The notes below the pieces were generated by a model, which worked only from the letters and a program-made list of their open reading frames with translations, did no database searches and was not told where the DNA came from. Below, piece after piece: positions 49,506-59,348 of a stretch of 64,000 bases of DNA (positions within the stretch are counted from its first letter, which is position 1; each line of letters opens with the position of its first letter). Source of the stretch: Escherichia coli (GTDB lineage: Bacteria > Pseudomonadota > Gammaproteobacteria > Enterobacterales > Enterobacteriaceae); the NCBI RefSeq assembly GCF_048403405.1, contig NZ_CP183129.1; one strand, written 5' to 3'. A program made the position numbers and the translations under genes.

Positions 49506-49571
49506 GCACCTTAGCGAATCGCAGGGCGCGACTCAGTAGCCTTGCCGTGTATTCATCACGGCGAGGTATTC

Positions 49572-51344
49572 ATGACCATCACCACAGACACCACTCTTTT
49601 ACACGACCCGCGTCGTCAGGCGGCGCTGCTGTACTGGCAGGGGTTTTCCGTGCCGCAGATTGCCGCCATGTTGCAGATGAAACGCCCGACGGTGCAGAGC
49701 TGGAAACAGCGCGACGGCTGGGACAGCGTTGCCCCCATCAGCCGTGTCGAAATGAGTCTGGAAGCGCGGCTGACCCAGCTCATCATCAAACCGCAGAAAA
49801 CCGGCGGTGACTTCAAGGAAATTGACCTGCTGGGACGCCAGATTGAACGACTGGCACGGGTCAACCGCTACAGCCAGACCGGCAACGAGGCAGACCTTAA
49901 TCCGAACGTCGCTAACCGCAACAAAGGCGGGCGGCGCAAACCGAAAAAGAATTTTTTCAGTGACGAGGCCATCGAAAAGCTGGAGCAGATTTTCTTTGAG
50001 CAGTCTTTCGAATATCAGTTGCACTGGTATCGCGCCGGGCTTGAGCACCGCATCCGCGATATCCTGAAATCCCGCCAGATTGGCGCGACGTTTTATTTTT
50101 CCCGCGAGGCGCTGCTGCGCGCCCTGAAAACCGGTCATAACCAGATTTTTCTGTCGGCCAGTAAAACGCAGGCGTATGTGTTCCGCGAATACATCATCGC
50201 CTTTGCCCGTCTGGTTGACGTTGACCTGACCGGTGACCCGATTGTCCTGGGCAATAACGGCGCAAAACTGATTTTTCTCGGCACCAACTCCAACACCGCG
50301 CAGAGCCATAACGGCGACCTGTACGTCGACGAGATTTTCTGGATCCCGAATTTTCAGGTACTGCGTAAGGTGGCATCAGGTATGGCCTCACAGAGTCACC
50401 TGCGCTCGACCTATTTCTCCACCCCGTCCACGCTGGCACACGACGCCTACCCGTTCTGGTCGGGTGAACTGTTCAACCGGGGACGCGCCAGCGCCGCCGA
50501 ACGCGTGGAAATCGACGTCAGTCATAACGCCCTTGCCGGTGGGCTTCTCTGTGCGGACGGCCAGTGGCGACAGATTGTCACCATTGAGGACGCCCTGAAA
50601 GGCGGCTGCACGCTGTTCGACATTGAGCAGCTCAAACGCGAAAACAGCGCCGACGATTTTAAAAACCTGTTCATGTGTGAATTTGTTGACGACAAGGCGT
50701 CGGTGTTCCCGTTTGAGGAGCTGCAACGCTGCATGGTCGACACGCTGGAAGAATGGGAAGACTATGCGCCGTTTGCCGCAAATCCGTTCGGCTCCCGACC
50801 GGTATGGATTGGTTACGACCCGTCACACCGTGGCGACAGCGCAGGATGCGTGGTACTGGCACCGCCGGTGGTGGCCGGTGGCAAATTCAGGATCCTTGAG
50901 CGTCACCAGTGGAAAGGCATGGACTTTGCCACTCAGGCTGAATCCATCCGCAAACTCACCGAAAAATACAACGTCGAATACATCGGTATTGATGCCACCG
51001 GCCTCGGTGTCGGCGTGTTCCAGCTCGTGCGCTCGTTCTATCCCGCCGCGCGCGACATCCGCTACACGCCGGAAATGAAAACCGCAATGGTGCTCAAGGC
51101 AAAAGACGTCATCCGCCGTGGCTGTCTGGAATATGACGTCAGCGCCACCGACATCACCAGCTCGTTTATGGCTATCCGCAAGACCATGACCAGCAGCGGA
51201 CGCAGCGCCACCTATGAGGCCAGCCGCAGCGAGGAAGCCAGCCACGCCGACCTCGCCTGGGCGACCATGCACGCCCTGTTAAATGAGCCACTCACCGCCG
51301 GTATCAGCACCCCGCTGACATCCACCATTCTGGAGTTTTACTGA
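49572..51344 (+). CDS. P: Terminase large (ATPase) subunit gpP
   Basis: ORF 49542..51344 was trimmed to MTITTDTTLLHDPRRQAALLYWQGFSVPQIAAMLQMKRPTVQSW (590 aa). P2 P. Confidence 0.93.
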   Translation: MTITTDTTLLHDPRRQAALLYWQGFSVPQIAAMLQMKRPTVQSWKQRDGWDSVAPISRVEMSLEARLTQLIIKPQKTGGDFKEIDLLGRQIERLARVNRYSQTGNEADLNPNVANRNKGGRRKPKKNFFSDEAIEKLEQIFFEQSFEYQLHWYRAGLEHRIRDILKSRQIGATFYFSREALLRALKTGHNQIFLSASKTQAYVFREYIIAFARLVDVDLTGDPIVLGNNGAKLIFLGTNSNTAQSHNGDLYVDEIFWIPNFQVLRKVASGMASQSHLRSTYFSTPSTLAHDAYPFWSGELFNRGRASAAERVEIDVSHNALAGGLLCADGQWRQIVTIEDALKGGCTLFDIEQLKRENSADDFKNLFMCEFVDDKASVFPFEELQRCMVDTLEEWEDYAPFAANPFGSRPVWIGYDPSHRGDSAGCVVLAPPVVAGGKFRILERHQWKGMDFATQAESIRKLTEKYNVEYIGIDATGLGVGVFQLVRSFYPAARDIRYTPEMKTAMVLKAKDVIRRGCLEYDVSATDITSSFMAIRKTMTSSGRSATYEASRSEEASHADLAWATMHALLNEPLTAGISTPLTSTILEFY

Positions 51345-52363
51345 TGAGCAAGAAAAAAGGGAAAACACCGCAACCTGCGGCAAAAAAAATGACCGCCAGC
51401 GCCCCGAAAATGGAGGCATTCACCTTTGGCGAGCCGGTGCCGGTACTCGACCGCCGTGACATTCTGGATTACGTCGAGTGCATCAGTAACGGCAGATGGT
51501 ATGAGCCGCCGGTCAGCTTTACCGGTCTGGCGAAAAGCCTGCGTGCTGCCGTGCATCACAGCTCGCCGATTTACGTCAAACGCAATATTCTGGCCTCGAC
51601 ATTTATCCCGCATCCGTGGCTTTCCCAGCAGGATTTCAGCCGCTTTGTGCTGGATTTTCTGGTGTTCGGTAATGCGTTTCTGGAAAAGCGTTACAGCACC
51701 ACCGGTAAGGTCATCAGACTGGAAACCTCACCGGCAAAATATACCCGCCGTGGCGTGGAGGAGGATGTTTACTGGTGGGTGCCGTCCTTCAACGAGCCGA
51801 CAGCCTTCGCGCCCGGCTCCGTGTTTCACCTGCTGGAGCCGGATATCAATCAGGAGCTGTACGGCCTGCCGGAATATCTCAGCGCCCTTAACTCTGCCTG
51901 GCTGAATGAGTCGGCCACGCTGTTCCGCCGCAAGTATTACGAAAACGGCGCTCATGCCGGATACATCATGTATGTCACCGATGCCGTGCAGGATCGCAAC
52001 GATATCGAAATGCTTCGCGAAAACATGGTGAAGTCGAAAGGCCGCAACAACTTTAAAAACCTGTTTCTCTATGCCCCACAGGGGAAAGCCGACGGCATTA
52101 AAATTATCCCCCTCAGTGAAGTGGCGACGAAGGACGATTTTTTTAATATCAAAAAAGTCAGCGCCGCAGATCTCCTGGACGCACACCGCATCCCCTTTCA
52201 GTTGATGGGCGGTAAGCCGGAGAATGTCGGGTCACTAGGAGATATTGAAAAAGTGGCAAAGGTCTTTGTCCGCAATGAACTCACTCCATTACAGGAGAGA
52301 ATAAAGTCAATAAATGAATGGTTAGATATGGAAGTCATAAAATCCCTTGATTATAACTTATAA
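51344..52363 (+). CDS. Q: Portal (capsid vertex) protein gpQ
   Basis: 339-aa ORF MSKKKGKTPQPAAKKMTASAPKMEAFTFGEPVPVLDRRDILDYVECISNGRWYEPP... Its start overlaps the P stop. The last ~30 codons switch to AT-rich composition. Confidence 0.92.
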   Translation: MSKKKGKTPQPAAKKMTASAPKMEAFTFGEPVPVLDRRDILDYVECISNGRWYEPPVSFTGLAKSLRAAVHHSSPIYVKRNILASTFIPHPWLSQQDFSRFVLDFLVFGNAFLEKRYSTTGKVIRLETSPAKYTRRGVEEDVYWWVPSFNEPTAFAPGSVFHLLEPDINQELYGLPEYLSALNSAWLNESATLFRRKYYENGAHAGYIMYVTDAVQDRNDIEMLRENMVKSKGRNNFKNLFLYAPQGKADGIKIIPLSEVATKDDFFNIKKVSAADLLDAHRIPFQLMGGKPENVGSLGDIEKVAKVFVRNELTPLQERIKSINEWLDMEVIKSLDYNL

Positions 52364-52375
52364 GTAAATATATAA

Positions 52376-52402
52376 AGTTGGCGGAATGCAATCCCGCCAA
52401 CT
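52376..52402. terminator. Bidirectional stem-loop between convergent Q and the 2-TM gene
   Basis: agttggcgg (52376..52384) / ccgccaact (52394..52402), a 9-bp perfect stem with a 9-nt loop and A/T-rich flanks. Confidence 0.55.
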
Positions 52403-52405
52403 TAA

Positions 52406-53113
52406 CTATATATACTTCCTTTTTACTCTACTTAATTCTATCACTGATGAGGAGTGACAAAATGACAAATTAATAGTATCGATATAATCCAAAATTTGAC
52501 TCTCAACCTCAATAAAAATATTTTTGGGCCCATTACTAATCGATATACCGATTTCATCCAAAACAGCCATCATTTTTCTCTGATGAGTTTTATATTTATA
52601 GTCTTTATTTTCCTCTGTAATATGTGCATTGGCTTCCTCAATAACACATTTGATTCTAGATATTATTTCTAGATAATCTCTCGAAACAGATATATCACCG
52701 CCTTGCGCTTCAGGGAACATAACCCTATACCATCTAAAAAAATTAACTTTCTCTGGATAGATGCTACTTCTTTTAGTTAACTCAGCACTTGCAAATTCTC
52801 TAAACATCGTCAGATGACTAGTGTAATTACTATTATTATTATTTTTAACTCCAGCGTTATATGTCATCAAAGCAATCATAACACCAAAAACGGTAACAAA
52901 AGTTGTTATAAGCCATCCAAACGCCTGAAAATACATTACTATACCAGATGTTTTTTCCGCAAAAAATTTTAAGCACTGGCTATCGAAGCATATATCACGC
53001 TCATATAGCTTTTCATTCTGAATAGTTTCAAAAAGAGAAATTAGCGAAAAAATCAAAAAAAGAGCTGACGACACACCGACAATATATTTGAGAAGTCTAA
53101 TATTTGCATTCAT
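52406..53113 (-). CDS. Two-transmembrane protein translationally coupled to the RT (candidate effector)
   Basis: 235-aa ORF. TM1 is YIVGVSSALFLIFSLISLF and TM2 is IVMYFQAFGWLITTFVTVFGVMIALMTY, followed by a soluble C-terminal ~150 aa. The ATG overlaps the RT stop (ATGA at 53110..53113). AT-rich. Confidence 0.7.
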   Translation of the reverse strand: MNANIRLLKYIVGVSSALFLIFSLISLFETIQNEKLYERDICFDSQCLKFFAEKTSGIVMYFQAFGWLITTFVTVFGVMIALMTYNAGVKNNNNSNYTSHLTMFREFASAELTKRSSIYPEKVNFFRWYRVMFPEAQGGDISVSRDYLEIISRIKCVIEEANAHITEENKDYKYKTHQRKMMAVLDEIGISISNGPKNIFIEVESQILDYIDTINLSFCHSSSVIELSRVKRKYI

Positions 53114-54300
53114 AATGGTTTTAAAGATGCCAATCTAGATTTAAAACACTCCAGTTTTTCTTTAAATGATTCAGAGCGAGTAAGAATAATCATCTTATAT
53201 CTCGTCAAATCATATTTTCTTTTATACCAATGTTTATTTTGATTACCTTTCGAATACGACAACTCTAAACTTTTTATAGCTGCATCAATCACAGCAACAT
53301 CTCTTTTAGATGGCATCGGTTTTATTGCCTGCAACTGTTTCTTGAATGATTCATATTTTTCATGCCCAACACGGCCAAGCTTATTCACTCTCCCCATACA
53401 TCTATTGAATTCTTTTCTGTATGCAACACTTGTTTTTGTGTTATTTTTTGCCGCCAGTAATTTCAAATTATGTATAGATGCCCTGATTCTTTTGACTTCA
53501 TCGGATGGTAGTCGAGGTGAGTCATAGTCAACTCTTAAACCATGTACTTTTATAGGTTCAGATGAACAGTGAAATATTTTTGTTTTGTGCTTATTTATCG
53601 GCAAGTCATGCTCAGAAAGCATCCTCTCTATATGGCTTTGCATTTGAGAAAAATCATAATTACTTATTTTAGATGACACGGTAATATCATCTACCAAACG
53701 CGTATAAACAAGTCCTTTCCTCTGCGCACGTCTTACCACATCCCCTTCAACAGCGAATAAACACAAAGTTGCTATATAGCTTGATGTTAAGGCCCCCTGT
53801 ACGACAAAATCATCCTTAGTACATATATCCACCAAGTATTCAAGAGCCTCATCCTTAATATGCAATATCTCCTCAAACACGCTCCTAACCAGATCTCTAT
53901 GGATATTATCGAAAAAATTACTTATATCCACCTTGAGAACTGTTTTTGCTCCACAATGAGCCTTTGCACATGAAACATAGTCACGTTTGACATTAGAATT
54001 TAAAACATCATTTTTACTGGGAACTGAACCAAACAAAAATGAAGGAAAAACAACCAATTCCTTAAAAATACGTTTATTAATTCTACTCTGTAATAATCTC
54101 ATTTTAGGATGTAGGGAGTAGACAATCCGTTTGCTTCCGTCAATTTTGGGAATTTCTTTTAGAGTATATTTCTCATCTAATGATAATTCTGCAATAGCTT
54201 TAAGCTCTTCAACAGAAATCGATAAAGCCTTTGACAACTTTTCAAGTGTTGTGATAGGAGCATTGGATTTGCTGTATGGTTTAAATTTATCCATAAACAT
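53110..54300 (-). CDS. Retron-like reverse transcriptase
   Basis: RT motifs read from the ORF: KIDGSKRIVYSLHP (motif 1), LLQSRINKRI (2), VLKVDISNFFDNI (A), QGALTSSYIATLCL (B), YTRLVDDITVSS (C, YxDD-type), INKHKTKIF (D/E) and VHGLRV (a retron VTG-like position). The N-terminal LEKLSKALSISVEELKAIA segment is as in retron RTs. The start is ambiguous: ATG 54300 or 54294 is favoured, with ATG 54336 or TTG 54384 possible. Confidence 0.8.
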   Translation of the reverse strand: MFMDKFKPYSKSNAPITTLEKLSKALSISVEELKAIAELSLDEKYTLKEIPKIDGSKRIVYSLHPKMRLLQSRINKRIFKELVVFPSFLFGSVPSKNDVLNSNVKRDYVSCAKAHCGAKTVLKVDISNFFDNIHRDLVRSVFEEILHIKDEALEYLVDICTKDDFVVQGALTSSYIATLCLFAVEGDVVRRAQRKGLVYTRLVDDITVSSKISNYDFSQMQSHIERMLSEHDLPINKHKTKIFHCSSEPIKVHGLRVDYDSPRLPSDEVKRIRASIHNLKLLAAKNNTKTSVAYRKEFNRCMGRVNKLGRVGHEKYESFKKQLQAIKPMPSKRDVAVIDAAIKSLELSYSKGNQNKHWYKRKYDLTRYKMIILTRSESFKEKLECFKSRLASLKPL

Positions 54301-54552
54301 ACCATTCAAATTCAAAGTTACGTACGGTCTTCCCATACTCAAGGGTGGAACAGCAGAGATGCTTACATCAACAATTGTCAGCAACAGCCTCTGCTATCTT
54401 TCGACCGTACGTAATGTCGTCGGCTACGGCACCATCGTAGTTGACGACGGTGGGGCCTCGCTGATAGGTCCATAGTGGACGCTTTTTTGTAAAAGCAAAA
54501 ACTGACAATTTAATGTTGTTGACTGCCGCATACCAAGCGAATCGCTGGTGCG
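54301..54552 (-). ncRNA. Candidate structured non-coding leader (possible retron msr-msd) upstream of the RT
   Basis: About 250 nt lie between a predicted promoter and the RT ATG, with no credible ORF and dense inverted repeats. These are a 12-bp perfect IR 54318..54329/54403..54414, a compound hairpin 54416..54448 (GTCGTC-AA-CTACG-loop-CGTAG-CC-GACGAC), a 9-bp IR 54373..54381/54502..54510 and a 7-bp IR 54352..54358/54389..54395. I could not assign a1/a2 or the branching G uniquely. Confidence 0.35.
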
Positions 54553-54558
54553 CTAAGA

Positions 54559-54587
54559 ATAATGCAACAAAAAAATAAGAATTTCAA
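54559..54587 (-). promoter_or_regulatory. Candidate sigma-70 promoter for the RT leader
   Basis: The minus strand reads TTGAAA (54587..54582), a 17-nt spacer, then CATTAT (54564..54559). The predicted start is near 54552, within ...TCTTAGCGCACC. Confidence 0.35.
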
Positions 54588-54625
54588 CCGGGTAACTGCA
54601 AGCCAGCGACATCGTTTAGCGCGCA

Positions 54626-54644
54626 GTGCTTTCCCCGCCTCGCC
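54626..54644 (-). other. cos cohesive-end sequence (P2-type 19-mer)
   Basis: The plus strand gtgctttccccgcctcgcc is the exact reverse complement of GGCGAGGCGGGGAAAGCAC, the P2 cohesive end as I remember it. It sits in a GC-rich block (about 54590..54780) with repeats ccgg[a/c]acatgcaa at 54720..54732 and 54735..54747. Confidence 0.8.
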
Positions 54645-54805
54645 CGCCCGCTTCGTGGGGCGGTTTTAATGCAGGTGCAATACCGCTTTTGAGCCACGCC
54701 CGTCCTGGCGGACGCACGGCCGGAACATGCAACTCCGGCACATGCAAAACCATGCACATATTGCACGCAGAAAGATAAATGCCAAAATACCTAAATCAAC
54801 TTCCA

Positions 54806-56644
54806 TTAATCAGCCAGATAAGGTTCAACTTTATCTTCCCATACACTAAATAAAGGCAAACAAGTTAAATAAAAGATAAAGACACAGGCAAAAACTGAAG
54901 TTGGTTGATAACAATGATTTACAGTATACCTGCCATGAGCCATCGTGTGTCTAATTGCAGCACCACCTTTCATATTGAACAATAAATCCATAGTCAATAC
55001 ATGATCACTATCAAAAACACCTTCCATTTCACTCCTATAATTTGCAAGCATTTGAGATAGGCTAGTAGCCTCCTCAAAAAGCGACACATCTATTTTCGTT
55101 GTTTCTTTTCTTCTTAATTCTAAAATCCATCTAATTGAATTCTCCAATTGCGGCAATAACAAATAACAGGCAGACACATAATCTCCCTGCCAAAGCTTAT
55201 AAAACCCCAAAGAAAATATTTCTGCATACCCAGGTGGAACAAATGCACTTTGTTGTGAGATTGGGTCAAATGTATTTTCATTTAATGAATACCTAGCCAA
55301 CACACTTTGCCTAACGACTTCAAACTCACCACAAACATAGACCTGATGCTCAATGTTACTAGTTCTTAAATAATTTGCACAAGCATCATTTAAACTTATA
55401 TCCCCCGCAGGATCCAAAGGTGAACGACTTGCTACAACGCGCCCTCTATCATCATAAACAACCGTTTCACTCATATTAAGAAAAAAATGTTTTTTAGCAT
55501 CGGAACGAGCTCTTTCCATAATTTCACTGGCACTTACAATCTTAAATCTAGCAATTAAAGTTTTAATTACCCTTGAGAAATCCAATTGATTATAAACATG
55601 CTCTTTCTGAGCGATAACATCACTAAGATCCATTGGTATTGCAAAGAAGTGCATTTCATCATTGATTTGATCTCGAATAGAATTCAATTCCTCTCTAATC
55701 TTTTTAATTTCTTCATTCATTCCACCAATTGCTCTAAATTCGCCAAGAGCAACTCTTAACCAATGAGCCTTCAATATTGAAGATGAAGACTGTTCAAATT
55801 GAGCCAATGTTATTTCTGACGCTTTAATTCTGCACCGTCTTCCTTGCTCTTCCATATCGTTTTTAACATATAATTCAGACGCAAAATAAAACAATTTTTT
55901 CACTGCATCAAAATAAGACGCTCCACAATGCTCATCAGCTATCTTTTCTGCATTCTCAGCCAATTGCAAGGGACACAATAAATTATTCTTATAAAGAATT
56001 TCAGAAACTCTTAATACACCGGTGAATATACCAGAGTCTATTAATACATGATATAACCTTAATGTCGAATCAACTATCCCCCCTTGTAGTTGTTTTTTCC
56101 TGCCAATAAGCATGCGCGATATTGCGATACCTCTATCCAAGCAGTCAACAACATCAAAAATATGGATATCACCTGACTCTTGTTTTTCTATTAAAGTATC
56201 GCAAGCATCATTAACCATTAGAGAATATGACTCTATTGCTTTATTGGCAGAGTCTATATCCTTACGGTTATTTATCCATAAAACATCACACACCCTAGAT
56301 ATAATATAAGGATTATCGGAGTTTTCTTTAATACAAGTTAATATTGTTGAAAAACTCTCCTTATAATCTGAAGGCCTATAGCCCCTCTCAGGATAGAGAA
56401 TGATTTTTGGCTCAAAACCGATAATATCACCAGACCTAGAAAATTTAAAATTAAACAACGCACGTAATAAATAGCAAAGCCGCCAAGAACTTACATCGTT
56501 TTTTAGCTTGTAAGATGACAACAACTGAACAAAATAAGACTCCATATCAAAATGAGAATAACTTCTTGGCGATGATAATATACTGGCGTATTCACTTTTT
56601 TTAAAATCATCAACTGAAATAGAAAAAACATCAAACTCGCTCAT
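54806..56644 (-). CDS. 612-aa cargo protein of unknown function with C-terminal R-x4-H (HEPN-like) motif; candidate anti-phage/abortive-infection effector
   Basis: Uninterrupted AT-rich ORF with a strong SD (AAGGTGAGGA immediately upstream of ATG 56644). It is largely helical by composition. I could not find a P-loop, so it is not Old-like. The C-terminus reads YLLLPQLENSIRWILELRR...GGAAIRHTMAHGRY. It occupies the tin/old position between A and cos. Confidence 0.55.
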   Translation of the reverse strand: MSEFDVFSISVDDFKKSEYASILSSPRSYSHFDMESYFVQLLSSYKLKNDVSSWRLCYLLRALFNFKFSRSGDIIGFEPKIILYPERGYRPSDYKESFSTILTCIKENSDNPYIISRVCDVLWINNRKDIDSANKAIESYSLMVNDACDTLIEKQESGDIHIFDVVDCLDRGIAISRMLIGRKKQLQGGIVDSTLRLYHVLIDSGIFTGVLRVSEILYKNNLLCPLQLAENAEKIADEHCGASYFDAVKKLFYFASELYVKNDMEEQGRRCRIKASEITLAQFEQSSSSILKAHWLRVALGEFRAIGGMNEEIKKIREELNSIRDQINDEMHFFAIPMDLSDVIAQKEHVYNQLDFSRVIKTLIARFKIVSASEIMERARSDAKKHFFLNMSETVVYDDRGRVVASRSPLDPAGDISLNDACANYLRTSNIEHQVYVCGEFEVVRQSVLARYSLNENTFDPISQQSAFVPPGYAEIFSLGFYKLWQGDYVSACYLLLPQLENSIRWILELRRKETTKIDVSLFEEATSLSQMLANYRSEMEGVFDSDHVLTMDLLFNMKGGAAIRHTMAHGRYTVNHCYQPTSVFACVFIFYLTCLPLFSVWEDKVEPYLAD

Positions 56645-56798
56645 TCCTCACCTTTAAAGCACTTAACAAACAATCATGGTAAACAATACCAAACTGCAAG
56701 CAACGATTAAATACAGAAAACTCTTTCTGTCGAGATTTTTCAATAACACTAAATATATACAGTACGAAATTATCTAATATTGCGTGAATTTTTGCCAT
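56631..56798 (-). CDS. 55-aa hypothetical protein coupled to A and to the 612-aa gene
   Basis: ORF 56631..56834 was trimmed to ATG 56798 (MAKIHAILDNFVLYIFSVIEKSRQKEF...). This ATG overlaps the A stop (TAATG). Its 3' end overlaps the 612-aa ORF start by 14 nt. It is AT-rich. Coding status is unproven. Confidence 0.4.
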   Translation of the reverse strand: MAKIHAILDNFVLYIFSVIEKSRQKEFSVFNRCLQFGIVYHDCLLSALKVRNERV

Positions 56799-59083
56799 TA
56801 TGTCCACTCCATTACTGTTGAGAATCCCGGCCACTCATCAATGACCGGATACGTGAATTTTTTCCCGCCATAATTTATGGTCGCTCCCCGAGCCAGCGCC
56901 TCAAGCTCCCATCGCTGTGGCCTGATACCGTTCTGAGCAAGGTCAACGCGGATACGGGTAATTTGCATTCGTTCCGACCGGGTCAGTCTGGCCGATGGCG
57001 CTATTTCATGCGGTTTTAACGGGCTTCCGTTTCTTTGCTGACGGTTTGGTCTTCTCAGACCGTGTTTTAATGCACCTCTGAGCGCCCTCACGACCTCCTG
57101 GTCATTCCATTCGATAACACCGTCATCTACCAGATTAAGCACTGCTACGGCGTGTTCAGAAGGCGTGGGAGCCGGTGACGAAGTATCACCACCGGTGAGC
57201 TTTCCACAGTTATTGACAGGACTCCGAGGCGCGGCGATGCCGCTTTTTAAAGTCAACGGCTCAACGACCGGAACTTTCGGCACAATGCGCCAGTCCGTCG
57301 TTCTGGTGATATGAATATGACGCGTGCCGAGATGCGGCGCGTAAATGCCGACCACTCTCTCGACTTCTTCCTCGTACTCGTTAACGTCATCCGACGGGCT
57401 ACGGGCGACCCTGACAGTCTGACAATCGCGCGGGACATTTGCCCCGCCCTGCGCGCTGATATACAACGCAAAATCACCACTGTCTGCGGCGGCGCGTGCA
57501 GCCTCGACGCGTTCGTCAAACTCATCAGCAATGCTGACGCCGCGAGGCAATTTGCGTAGTTCACGGTAAGCCCCCATTGTCGGCAGGCCAACCGTTTTAA
57601 ATTGCGGGATACGCCACGTTGACGCCCATGCGGTAACAGCCGCTGCAGTGTCTTTCAGCGGCCTGCCGGTATCGTTATCGAGCTGACCATCCAGTGCATA
57701 GCCGTCGATATTTTTTGAGATGTATTTCGCGATATATCCCGCAGCACCGCCCCGGTTAAGGTGTTTCGCCTGAAAACGGTTTCGCGCGGCTCCTCTTTCG
57801 TCGCCATCCTCTTTGAGCGCATAGCGACGCATGATTTCGATAATCTGGTTACGCTGGCGTGGATTACAAAAAAGCATCATATGCCAGTGCGGCGTTCCGT
57901 CGTGGTGTGGCTCGACGACTCGCAAACCGTAGACCTGTAAATCATTATCCTTGAATGCCGTGCGCATCAGGCTCCAGATACGGCAGAGATAACGCTGCGC
58001 ATCCTTCGGATTAAATGCCTCATCATTCCAGCCGTGATTAAGCTGCACGGTTTTACTTTCTCCTTTTCCGACCTGACGTGTCGGGTGATACTTTGACGGC
58101 GCGGTCAGCGTGATAAACATCCCCACATCACCCTCTGCGGCGGCGTAACGCTCAATACCGGCGATGGTGTTCATCAGCTCCATCCGGCGAATTTCAGGAT
58201 TAGAAATACTGCCCATCACCTTACTGATAAGGTCGATGCGCTCGCCGGTTTCCCTGTTTTCGAGGTCACACGATTTAAGAAATTCCAGATTTGCCTGGCG
58301 GCGTGCACGCACATCACGAATGGCGTGTTTACTGGCATAAGGAGAACGATCTTTATTGACCTCCCCGACAGCAATCAGTAACGCCTCATGCCAGCGCATA
58401 CGCTGGCCTTTAAGCTGATGAGTCCACCACTCATCGTTAAACAGGCGGGCAATGGCAGAATATGCCTGCCTCGTGGTCATCTGTCCTTTACGGTATTTTT
58501 TCCAGTAGAGCGGGGAAATATTGAAAGCACGTGCAGCGCCAGCAACATGACTATACAGGTGAGCCTGCGCCTCATCCGTAAACAGCGATTCTTTTTCGCC
58601 ATGCGCATCCACCCAGGCATCGCTGAGTTCCTCATACATCATGAAAAGCTGCGATGAGATACGGGCGGCAAACTTTTTCAGCTCCTTGTCATTCATTCCA
58701 GGCAGGCGCGCATAGTGGTCACGCTCTGCCAGAAACAGCAACGACGCGTCGGTGTTCATTTCATGGCGCTGATTCACGCGCTCAATGCGCGGCCATAAAC
58801 GACGCTGAAAAGTGGATGTGAGGAAATAAAACCCGTGTACCGGGCTTTTATTGCGCCGGATGTAGTCATAGCGTGAAGTAAACAGCGAGCGCAAAAAGTA
58901 AGGCAGGCGGTTAATCGTGGATAAAACCCCTTGCACCTGACGCATCTCGTCACGTGTAAGGGGTCTTTCGCGCCCGACGGCCTCGCGTGGCGCGTTCCAT
59001 GCATAAGCACCGGTAAACGTCTTACCGGTGCCTGCGGCAAATGCTGACGGAGGGACAAAACGCCCGGAGGCTTTAACGGCCAT
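56798..59083 (-). CDS. A: Replication initiation endonuclease gpA (rolling-circle, HUH-type)
   Basis: ORF 56798..59125 was trimmed to MAVKASGRFVPPSAFAAGTGKTFTGAYAWNAPREAVGRERPL (761 aa). It contains VEPHHDGTPHWHMMLF (HUH-like) and YIAKYISKNIDGY (catalytic Tyr pair). It matches P2 A closely as I recall it. Confidence 0.93.
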   Translation of the reverse strand: MAVKASGRFVPPSAFAAGTGKTFTGAYAWNAPREAVGRERPLTRDEMRQVQGVLSTINRLPYFLRSLFTSRYDYIRRNKSPVHGFYFLTSTFQRRLWPRIERVNQRHEMNTDASLLFLAERDHYARLPGMNDKELKKFAARISSQLFMMYEELSDAWVDAHGEKESLFTDEAQAHLYSHVAGAARAFNISPLYWKKYRKGQMTTRQAYSAIARLFNDEWWTHQLKGQRMRWHEALLIAVGEVNKDRSPYASKHAIRDVRARRQANLEFLKSCDLENRETGERIDLISKVMGSISNPEIRRMELMNTIAGIERYAAAEGDVGMFITLTAPSKYHPTRQVGKGESKTVQLNHGWNDEAFNPKDAQRYLCRIWSLMRTAFKDNDLQVYGLRVVEPHHDGTPHWHMMLFCNPRQRNQIIEIMRRYALKEDGDERGAARNRFQAKHLNRGGAAGYIAKYISKNIDGYALDGQLDNDTGRPLKDTAAAVTAWASTWRIPQFKTVGLPTMGAYRELRKLPRGVSIADEFDERVEAARAAADSGDFALYISAQGGANVPRDCQTVRVARSPSDDVNEYEEEVERVVGIYAPHLGTRHIHITRTTDWRIVPKVPVVEPLTLKSGIAAPRSPVNNCGKLTGGDTSSPAPTPSEHAVAVLNLVDDGVIEWNDQEVVRALRGALKHGLRRPNRQQRNGSPLKPHEIAPSARLTRSERMQITRIRVDLAQNGIRPQRWELEALARGATINYGGKKFTYPVIDEWPGFSTVMEWT

Positions 59084-59348
59084 ATGAGCCAAAAGCCTCT
59101 GAACAACGCTTGCTGAGTTGCTCAACCTGCGCGTTTAAATCAGCAAAAGACTTTGCGCTTCCGGTCAGAATATCGTGATGCATCAGGCCGGAAACGAGCT
59201 GGCTTAATTTCGGGTAATAACCAACCACCGCCAGCCATTCCTGACCGGCGTTTTTACCGCTTTCCGCTCTCTTTTTCTCGTGGAGAATAAACTGAAAGCT
59301 GTCACTGGTAACGACATAACGTTCGCCAATTTCAATACGAATGCTCAT
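59073..59348 (-). CDS. P2 orf83-like early protein
   Basis: 91-aa ORF MSIRIEIGERYVVTSDSFQFILHEKKRAESGKNAGQEWLAVVGYYPKLSQ... Position immediately upstream of A. Confidence 0.8.
   Translation of the reverse strand: MSIRIEIGERYVVTSDSFQFILHEKKRAESGKNAGQEWLAVVGYYPKLSQLVSGLMHHDILTGSAKSFADLNAQVEQLSKRCSEAFGSYGR

Follow-up and report, generated by a model that had tools for sequence, protein, structure and literature searches.

Introduction

Retron-Eco6, also named Ec48, is a retron of type IV with a reverse transcriptase (RT) of clade 3 (Mao et al. 1997; Millman et al. 2020; Mestre et al. 2020); the first of these papers is said to have described its 48-nt multicopy single-stranded DNA (msDNA). Here we analysed a stretch of 64,000 nucleotides from Escherichia coli (contig NZ_CP183129.1, assembly GCF_048403405.1; hereafter the window), in which positions 52406..54300 hold the gene of an RT and the gene of a protein with two transmembrane (TM) helices, both on the minus strand. 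We are highly confident that this locus is Retron-Eco6 (Ec48) itself, and that a P2-like prophage carries this type IV retron as cargo in its hotspot next to cos. The gene content is already known, Ec48 being the reference member of the type IV class. An additional RNA hairpin, which pairs part of the retron RNA with the leader of the RT gene, may be new.

Ec48 is the retron in which the idea of a 'guardian of RecBCD' was established. It defends against phages of three families, and this defence requires RT residues D216/D217 as well as the TM helices of the effector; lambda and T7 escape through mutations in their RecBCD inhibitors, Gam and gp5.9, expression of either inhibitor kills Ec48-bearing cells, and Ec48 cannot be transformed into recB-deleted cells (Millman et al., 10.1101/2020.06.21.156273). 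The whole Red operon is no stronger a trigger of Eco6 than Gam by itself (10.1101/2025.10.22.683967). The msDNA of Eco6 was seen as RT-DNA on gels and by sequencing (PMC8989520) and has served as a reference band (10.1101/2025.10.22.683967); it is about 48 nt long, with a 3' end three bases shorter than originally described (Palka et al., PMC8989520). The compact prime editor PE6a was furthermore derived from the Ec48 RT (PMC10482982). In P2-like phages the interval from gpA over cos to gpQ is a hotspot of defence systems, retrons included (Rousset et al. 2022, PMC9122126).

Results

An earlier note, made from the letters of the window and a list of its open reading frames (ORFs), had described an RT of about 395 residues with a full series of RT motifs. 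An ORF scan of the minus strand gave an open frame at 53110..54384 with in-frame ATG codons at 54336, 54300 and 54294. From ATG 54300 the RT (53110..54300) is 396 aa long, and every motif quoted earlier was found in its translation (KIDGSKRIVYSLHP, LLQSRINKRI, DISNFFDNI, QGALTSSY, YTRLVDDITVSS, NKHKTKIF, VHGLRV, LEKLSKALSISVEELKAIA and CAKAH). Its stop codon TGA (53112..53110) overlaps, in an ATGA, the start codon (53113..53111) of a 235-aa ORF at 52406..53113 (minus strand), which suggests translational coupling of the two genes. A hydropathy scan located hydrophobic segments in this second protein at about residues 5-32 and 58-86 and none further on. The overlap and the two N-terminal TM helices, hereafter giving the protein its name 2TM, were both as the note had described them. 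The module has a GC content of 31-38%, its flanks one of 53-59%.

The note had further recognised in this arrangement the architecture of type IV retrons of the Ec48/Eco6 class. Family assignments of both proteins agreed, and the resemblance turned out to be identity. The PADLOC model RT_IV matched the RT over essentially its full length (585.7 bits, E=1.1e-176, model positions 2-385 of 386), with RT_V (212.6 bits) and RT_VI (181.5 bits) as runners-up; the best 25 PADLOC matches were all to RT models, nearly all of them models of retron RTs. The 2TM protein matched PADLOC 2TM_IV (282.9 bits, E=4.1e-85) and, with 226.7 bits, passed the cut-off of 65 of the NCBIfam equivalog NF038235, 'retron Ec48 family effector membrane protein'. 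Doman et al. 2023 (PMC10482982) print in their supplement a sequence named 'Ec48-RT', and all of its 399 residues occur unchanged and in one run in the window ORF (399/399). Counted from ATG 54336, the catalytic aspartates are D216 and D217; this numbering matches the residues mutated by Millman et al. and thereby supports the identity. At the DNA level, window positions 54674..54375 (minus strand) match the Ec48 defence construct pAA10 of Millman et al. at 299 of 300 positions. The matching stretch includes the P2 cos site as well as the retron RNA, and the tested construct therefore derives from the same prophage context. We saw no sequence-level evidence against the identification.

The module is not confined to this strain. 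Counting genomes in which at least 80% of the query window 52300..54800 was present in one piece, we found it in 56 of 5,426 complete E. coli genomes. RefSeq entries with identical DNA, from E. coli GN02461, MS 69-1, TUM1226 and others, list the RT, the Ec48 effector and the portal protein in this order. Phage pro147 carries the module at 99.6% identity: its 2TM protein and non-coding RNA (ncRNA) are identical to those of the window, whereas its RT differs by three residues (S40P, H238R and G312A in the 396-aa numbering). These comparisons also bear on the idea that the Ec48 of the window has decayed or fallen silent and has lost its function in this prophage. Prophage cargo can decay, and the 2TM gene is annotated in two pieces in one complete genome (strain 4621), although nothing specific to the window points this way. 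Both of its ORFs are intact, the RT is identical to the functional protein, the ncRNA stretch is that of the tested construct and of pro147, predicted promoter-like and terminator-like sites flank the operon, and several unrelated genomes hold the same allele at 100% identity. We regard decay as very improbable.

As to these flanking sites, a consensus scan gave a promoter-like TTGAAA-17 nt-CATTAT at 54559..54587 (minus strand; 9/12 matches), about 30 nt 5' of the ncRNA. Such sites were no commoner in the region than in shuffled sequence; the placement of this one is suggestive, and its role as the promoter is a reading of the sequence. The same scan gave a putative terminator, a hairpin with a 13-bp stem and a T-rich tail at 52375..52403 (minus strand), which begins 3 nt past the 2TM stop codon, between the convergent 2TM and Q genes.

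Three motifs typical of retron RTs, NAXXH, YADD and VTG, are not matched in the window RT, which has CAKAH, LVDD and VHG in their place. The earlier note had left open on this ground that the RT belongs to a distinct system. Our data did not confirm this suspicion. In an alignment of type IV RTs from 26 relatives that are 46-79% identical and range from Serratia to Burkholderia, Variovorax and Acidithiobacillus, the residues Y211-T-R-L-V-D-D217, V264-H-G266 and C123-A-x-x-H-C128 are invariant or nearly so. Read in this way, LVDD, VHG and CAxxH are a signature of the type IV family and not a trace of decay, while NAXXH, YADD and VTG are typical of retrons without defining them. The deviation has also been documented for Ec48: RT-Eco6 is one of two validated retron RTs without the asparagine of NAXXH, and in it VHG replaces VTG (Simon et al. 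2019, PMC6868368).

The unusual motifs would also suit a retron-like but distinct RT-based defence system, of the defence-associated RT (DRT), UG or Abi-P2 kind, that makes no msDNA; indeed, non-retron RTs are known from the P2-like hotspot, for example a 514-aa RT of pro147 and, as described by Odegrip et al. 2006, the RT Abi-P2. The models of such systems stayed far under their cut-offs, however (Drt3a 39.8 bits for a cut-off of 200, Drt2 34.8 for 390, AbiA 23.9 for 250 and Drt4 16.6 for 450), against the 585.7 bits of RT_IV. The RT is, moreover, identical to the Ec48 RT, the msDNA of which has been seen repeatedly, and a covarying a1/a2 ncRNA lies 5' of it. A distinct system of this kind is extremely unlikely, and we take it as already refuted by the sequence identity.

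A mobile retroelement, either a group II intron or a diversity-generating retroelement (DGR), would likewise account for the generic RVT_1 domain, which Pfam assigns to RT residues 78-284 (E=1.7e-31). The group II RT/maturase model TIGR04416 gave 45.3 bits for a cut-off of 300, and Rfam found no intron RNA. An inverted-repeat scan of 54250..54640 revealed no DGR template or variable repeat, no direct-repeat scan having been made. The partner of the RT, finally, is a 2TM protein conserved throughout the family. The chance of a mobile element is practically negligible, the family assignments in our view already refuting it.

For this family-wide comparison we collected, from one-genome-per-species contigs, 47 loci with an RT 35-56% identical to that of the window. 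In 43 of the 47 a 2TM homologue lies directly 3' of the RT gene, usually with an overlap of 1-35 nt at the RT stop. The four exceptions comprise three loci at contig ends and one in which an ORF of suitable length is present but escaped detection by tblastn. The earlier note had held that grouping of the RT with group II intron or Abi RTs, or a 2TM gene not conserved along with it, would speak against a retron; neither was found.

The retron ncRNA (msr-msd) occupies 54360..54529 on the minus strand. The corresponding stretch of pAA10 is identical to it, and its fold has a z-score of -4.3. Upstream sequence similarity to the window was detectable in four Enterobacterales loci, with compensatory changes in the a1/a2 stem (a1 at about 54521..54502, a2 at about 54381..54365) and in both msr hairpins (54496..54481 and 54480..54468). 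The covariance model R1, built from these loci, gave 152 bits on the window and matched at full length, just 5' of the RT gene and on its strand, in 26 of the 47 relatives. In the resulting model-fitted alignment of 27 sequences, 90.4% of the cells pair, against 67% in shuffled and 27-46% in slid controls, and 45 of the 52 ncRNA pairs show compensatory changes. The a1 strand terminates in an invariant (U)UAG, and G54502 is therefore the candidate branching G; this assignment is deduced from the sequence. An outer pairing, 54587..54579 with 54313..54305 (repeat I6), was considered as a1/a2 and rejected: it is not followed by a G and reaches into the -35 element, and strong covariation marks the inner a1/a2.

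A side observation concerns 54382..54427 (minus strand), which is nearly invariant in the loci of Kosakonia, Xenorhabdus, Buttiauxella and Rahnella (L003, L004, L005 and L026), while the msr hairpins vary freely. The RTs of these four are only 53-56% identical to that of the window. A dual constraint, by the a1/a2 fold and by the second hairpin described below, is a possible reason.

The msd, the template of the 48-nt msDNA-Ec48, could be placed at 54407..54454 (minus strand) from the RT-DNA start given in a retron census and from the published length. This census draws on the sequencing that Palka et al. did for Eco6, and in it the Eco6 RT-DNA begins GTACGTAATGTCG (PMC10849725, supplement 3); in the window this start maps to 54407. 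The donor-insertion positions of the census, 130;136, map to a hairpin loop at 54444..54438. As DNA, 54407..54454 folds into a 13-bp hairpin of -11.1 kcal/mol, and the predicted msDNA, in plus-strand sequence, is GTACGTAATGTCGTCGGCTACGGCACCATCGTAGTTGACGACGGTGGG. Its 3' end is placed from the 48-nt length only and is to be read as an estimate. An msd directly abutting a2 by analogy with Ec86, at 54429..54382, was also tried. It folds poorly as DNA (-4.9 kcal/mol, z = -0.5) and conflicts with both the census start and the donor site in the loop, and such a placement next to a2 is probably wrong. A small hairpin of 54408..54403 with 54389..54384, of weak covariation, could span the interval between a2 and the RT-DNA start.

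Several points weigh against our identification or against a simple understanding of it. First, the comparison with the Ec48 that was studied covers only 400 nt of pAA10, of which 300 are comparable, and 399 aa of the RT. Second, 25 nt (54382..54406) separate the a2 stem from the census RT-DNA start at 54407, which is unusual for a retron, since in classic retrons the template starts right beside a2. Third, the Eco6 accessory protein was not toxic when over-expressed alone (Palka et al., PMC8989520), and a simple toxin-antitoxin picture may not apply to Eco6. Lastly, Rfam gave no match in 52000..57000 at E<=1; we weighed this as a matter of library coverage, and the absent match is not evidence against the ncRNA.

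A second RNA hairpin, which we call S2, lies at 54318..54414 (minus strand). It is built on a 12-nt perfect inverted repeat, whose arms form helix A/A': TTACGTACGGTC (54414..54403) covers the first bases of the msd, and GACCGTACGTAA (54329..54318) belongs to the RT leader. A second helix, B/B', flanks a2 (54400..54387 with 54362..54349), so that the 3' flank of the msd is paired with the leader too, and between the two helices lies a small hairpin of 3 bp with a conserved UAUGG (54345..54332). In the relatives the pairing of the repeat is kept despite different sequences, and the helix flanking a2 is kept too. In 21 of 27 loci, a stretch of 10 nt or more in the interior of the ncRNA finds its perfect complement no further than 110 nt on; a match of this length occurs in only 1.3% of control windows. 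RNAalifold, applied to an unfitted MAFFT alignment of 16 loci, returned 27 S2 pairs, 24 of them with compensatory changes; 95.6% of the cells pair, against 72.7% in shuffled and 38-44% in slid controls.

The alignment of S2 contains about 22 G-U pairs against a single A-C. Since G-U pairs are common and A-C nearly absent, S2 is a structure of the sense-strand RNA; the same counts ruled out a palindrome acting at the DNA level and an antisense structure. The a2 strand is located in the apical loop of S2, and therefore S2 and the a1/a2 stem exclude each other. In the window the fold with S2 has an energy of -76.9 kcal/mol and the one with a forced a1/a2 stem -70.6 kcal/mol, a gap of about 6 kcal/mol. 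Some relatives have a U-rich stretch past S2. For the window, an intrinsic terminator at S2 was not indicated: it has no U-rich stretch there and the consensus scan flagged nothing.

Judged from these alignments, the S2 structure itself is well supported. The retron literature we searched contained no description of it; S2 is possibly new and the only item of this analysis that might repay follow-up. We consider it possible, if rather doubtful, that S2 is a switch or attenuator that ties the folding or reverse transcription of the ncRNA to expression of the RT and the coupled 2TM protein and, as part of the same proposal, that it is related to the msDNA-dependent riboregulator of type VI retrons. 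Clade 3 retrons cloned from a1 to a2 only gave no RT-DNA, for which the authors suggested a non-canonical ncRNA (PMC10849725). Such a role of S2, if true, could account for the missing RT-DNA of these clones, and S2 may add to type IV retrons a level of regulation that has gone unrecognised.

The RT start differs between sources. Millman et al. and Doman et al. (PMC10482982) use ATG 54336, which gives 408 aa beginning MGRPYV; the annotation of pro147 uses the equivalent of 54300 (396 aa), and the NCBI annotation pipeline PGAP uses 54294 (394 aa; WP_000357146.1). We rejected ATG 54336 as the start. This codon, the AUG within the UAUGG of S2, is conserved, but of 21 relatives only 4 have it in the RT frame with no stop in between; in the others its equivalent opens an ORF of 2-84 codons (MGRP-stop, for instance) or stands in another frame. 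The first RT start that could be used in the relatives comes about 44-73 nt past the ncRNA, corresponding to 54300/54294. Because ATG 54336 opens into the RT in so few of them, the family comparison favours a shorter protein, and the native start is more likely 54300 or 54294 than the one of the literature. The residue numbers in PMC10482982 disagree with counting from M1 = MGRPYV.

The setting of the retron was resolved by comparison with phage P2 (NC_001895). The cohesive-end core GGCGAGGCGGGGAAAGCAC lies at 54626..54644, read on the minus strand, and equals cosL 1-19 of P2; it marks the left edge of an AT-rich hotspot cassette at 52303..54617 (minus strand), delimited by blastn against P2 and by GC content. 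P2 positions 1-27 are homologous to window 54644..54618. Homology ends at 54618 and resumes at 52302, with 96.8% identity onward, and the cassette stands in place of P2 positions 28-262, where P2 has the tQ terminator and the final ~25 codons of Q. Around it are the genes of terminase P (49542..51344, plus strand), portal protein Q (51344..52363, plus strand) and replication protein A (56798..59125, minus strand). The earlier note had located the module between cos and Q, an interval for which it knew of no coding sequence in P2; it was right on both counts, the interval of the reference P2 holding the tQ terminator and no gene. As P2 homology ends inside Q, the cassette boundary falls within a gene, and the cassette brings its own Q tail and terminator. 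The tail differs from that of P2 from residue 314 (~25 residues), and the last 61 nt of the gene (52303..52363) have 25% GC.

On the gpA side of cos, where P2 has old and tin, the window carries a 612-aa AT-rich ORF (54806..56644, minus strand) with matches to Pfam DUF7380 (E=1.9e-24) and to PDC-S39 (E=2e-68), a family of candidate defence genes in PADLOC; RefSeq names its product a DUF7380 domain-containing protein. It is probably, on these matches and its position, a second and uncharacterised defence cargo of the same hotspot. In pro147 (L002, 1280..2824) an unrelated 514-aa 'RNA-directed DNA polymerase' lies across cos from Ec48, which makes two RT genes in one hotspot; the corresponding place in the window is taken by the DUF7380 gene. 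Two further constructs in supplementary table 4 of Millman et al., pAA11 (Ec67) and pAA16 (Ec86), contain GGCGTGGCGGGGATACGAGC, which differs little from the P2 cos core GGCGAGGCGGGGAAAGCAC. Ec67 and Ec86, too, may therefore adjoin the cos site of a P2/186-like prophage.

Discussion

The window thus shows Ec48 in its native place, with a P2 cos site between the retron, on the Q side, and a further candidate defence gene, on the gpA side. The published functions of Ec48 apply to this copy by sequence identity, and its mode of action can be sketched as follows. The ncRNA would share a single minus-strand transcript with the genes of the RT and of the 2TM protein. The RT would bind the folded ncRNA, prime from the 2'-OH of the branching G (candidate 54502), with which the a1/a2 stem ends, and copy the msd into a 48-nt DNA that would stay attached to the RNA as msDNA. 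In uninfected cells the system would be quiet. Inactivation of RecBCD, either by a phage (Gam of lambda, gp5.9 of T7) or by deletion of recB, would be the trigger, and the infected cell would die before the phage completes its cycle. By this abortive infection the population of lysogens, and hence the prophage, would be protected. The 2TM protein may kill by permeabilising the membrane, in response to a presumed sensing of the status of RecBCD.

Compared with the described systems, the window agrees with Ec48 in every respect that was compared: in the RT (399/399), in the ncRNA and cos flank (299/300), in an effector of the equivalog family, in the ATGA gene order and in the P2 cos neighbourhood. 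The rest of RT clade 3 consists of types V (Retron-Sen1/Se72) and VI (Retron-Vpa2), whose RTs are related to that of the window. Gam triggers types IV and V alike (10.1101/2025.10.22.683967). The effectors differ: type V has a cold-shock-domain protein, type VI, the sister group, pairs a helix-turn-helix (HTH) protein with a small toxic one, and Ec48 has the 2TM protein. Type VI has structured RNA beyond the msr-msd, in which the start codon of the effector lies in stem-loops and is freed by msDNA, and this recalls S2 with its conserved AUG. The type VI msDNA is undetectable until the system is triggered and is proposed to hybridise to a direct repeat. In the window, by contrast, the msd RNA is complementary to the leader, so that the msDNA has the same sense as the leader, unlike in type VI.

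Outside the retrons, old and tin of P2 occupy the same niche and follow the same logic as Ec48, in that a prophage carries them as cargo and other phages are kept out. A recent report (10.64898/2026.07.10.737580) states that OLD kills cells deficient in recB and blocks lambda, in which it resembles Ec48. It is an ATPase-TOPRIM nuclease, however, and unlike Ec48 has neither RT nor msDNA. The side of cos differs as well: P2 has its cargo on the gpA side, whereas in the window the retron is on the Q side and the DUF7380 gene on the gpA side. The Abi-P2 RT of P2-EC30 (Odegrip et al. 2006), as far as it is described where cited in PMC9122126 and PMC7736814, is an RT in a P2-like variable region that confers phage exclusion. 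Abi-P2 and the UG/Abi RTs are single large RTs that, unlike the RT of the window, have no msr-msd RNA and no 2TM partner.

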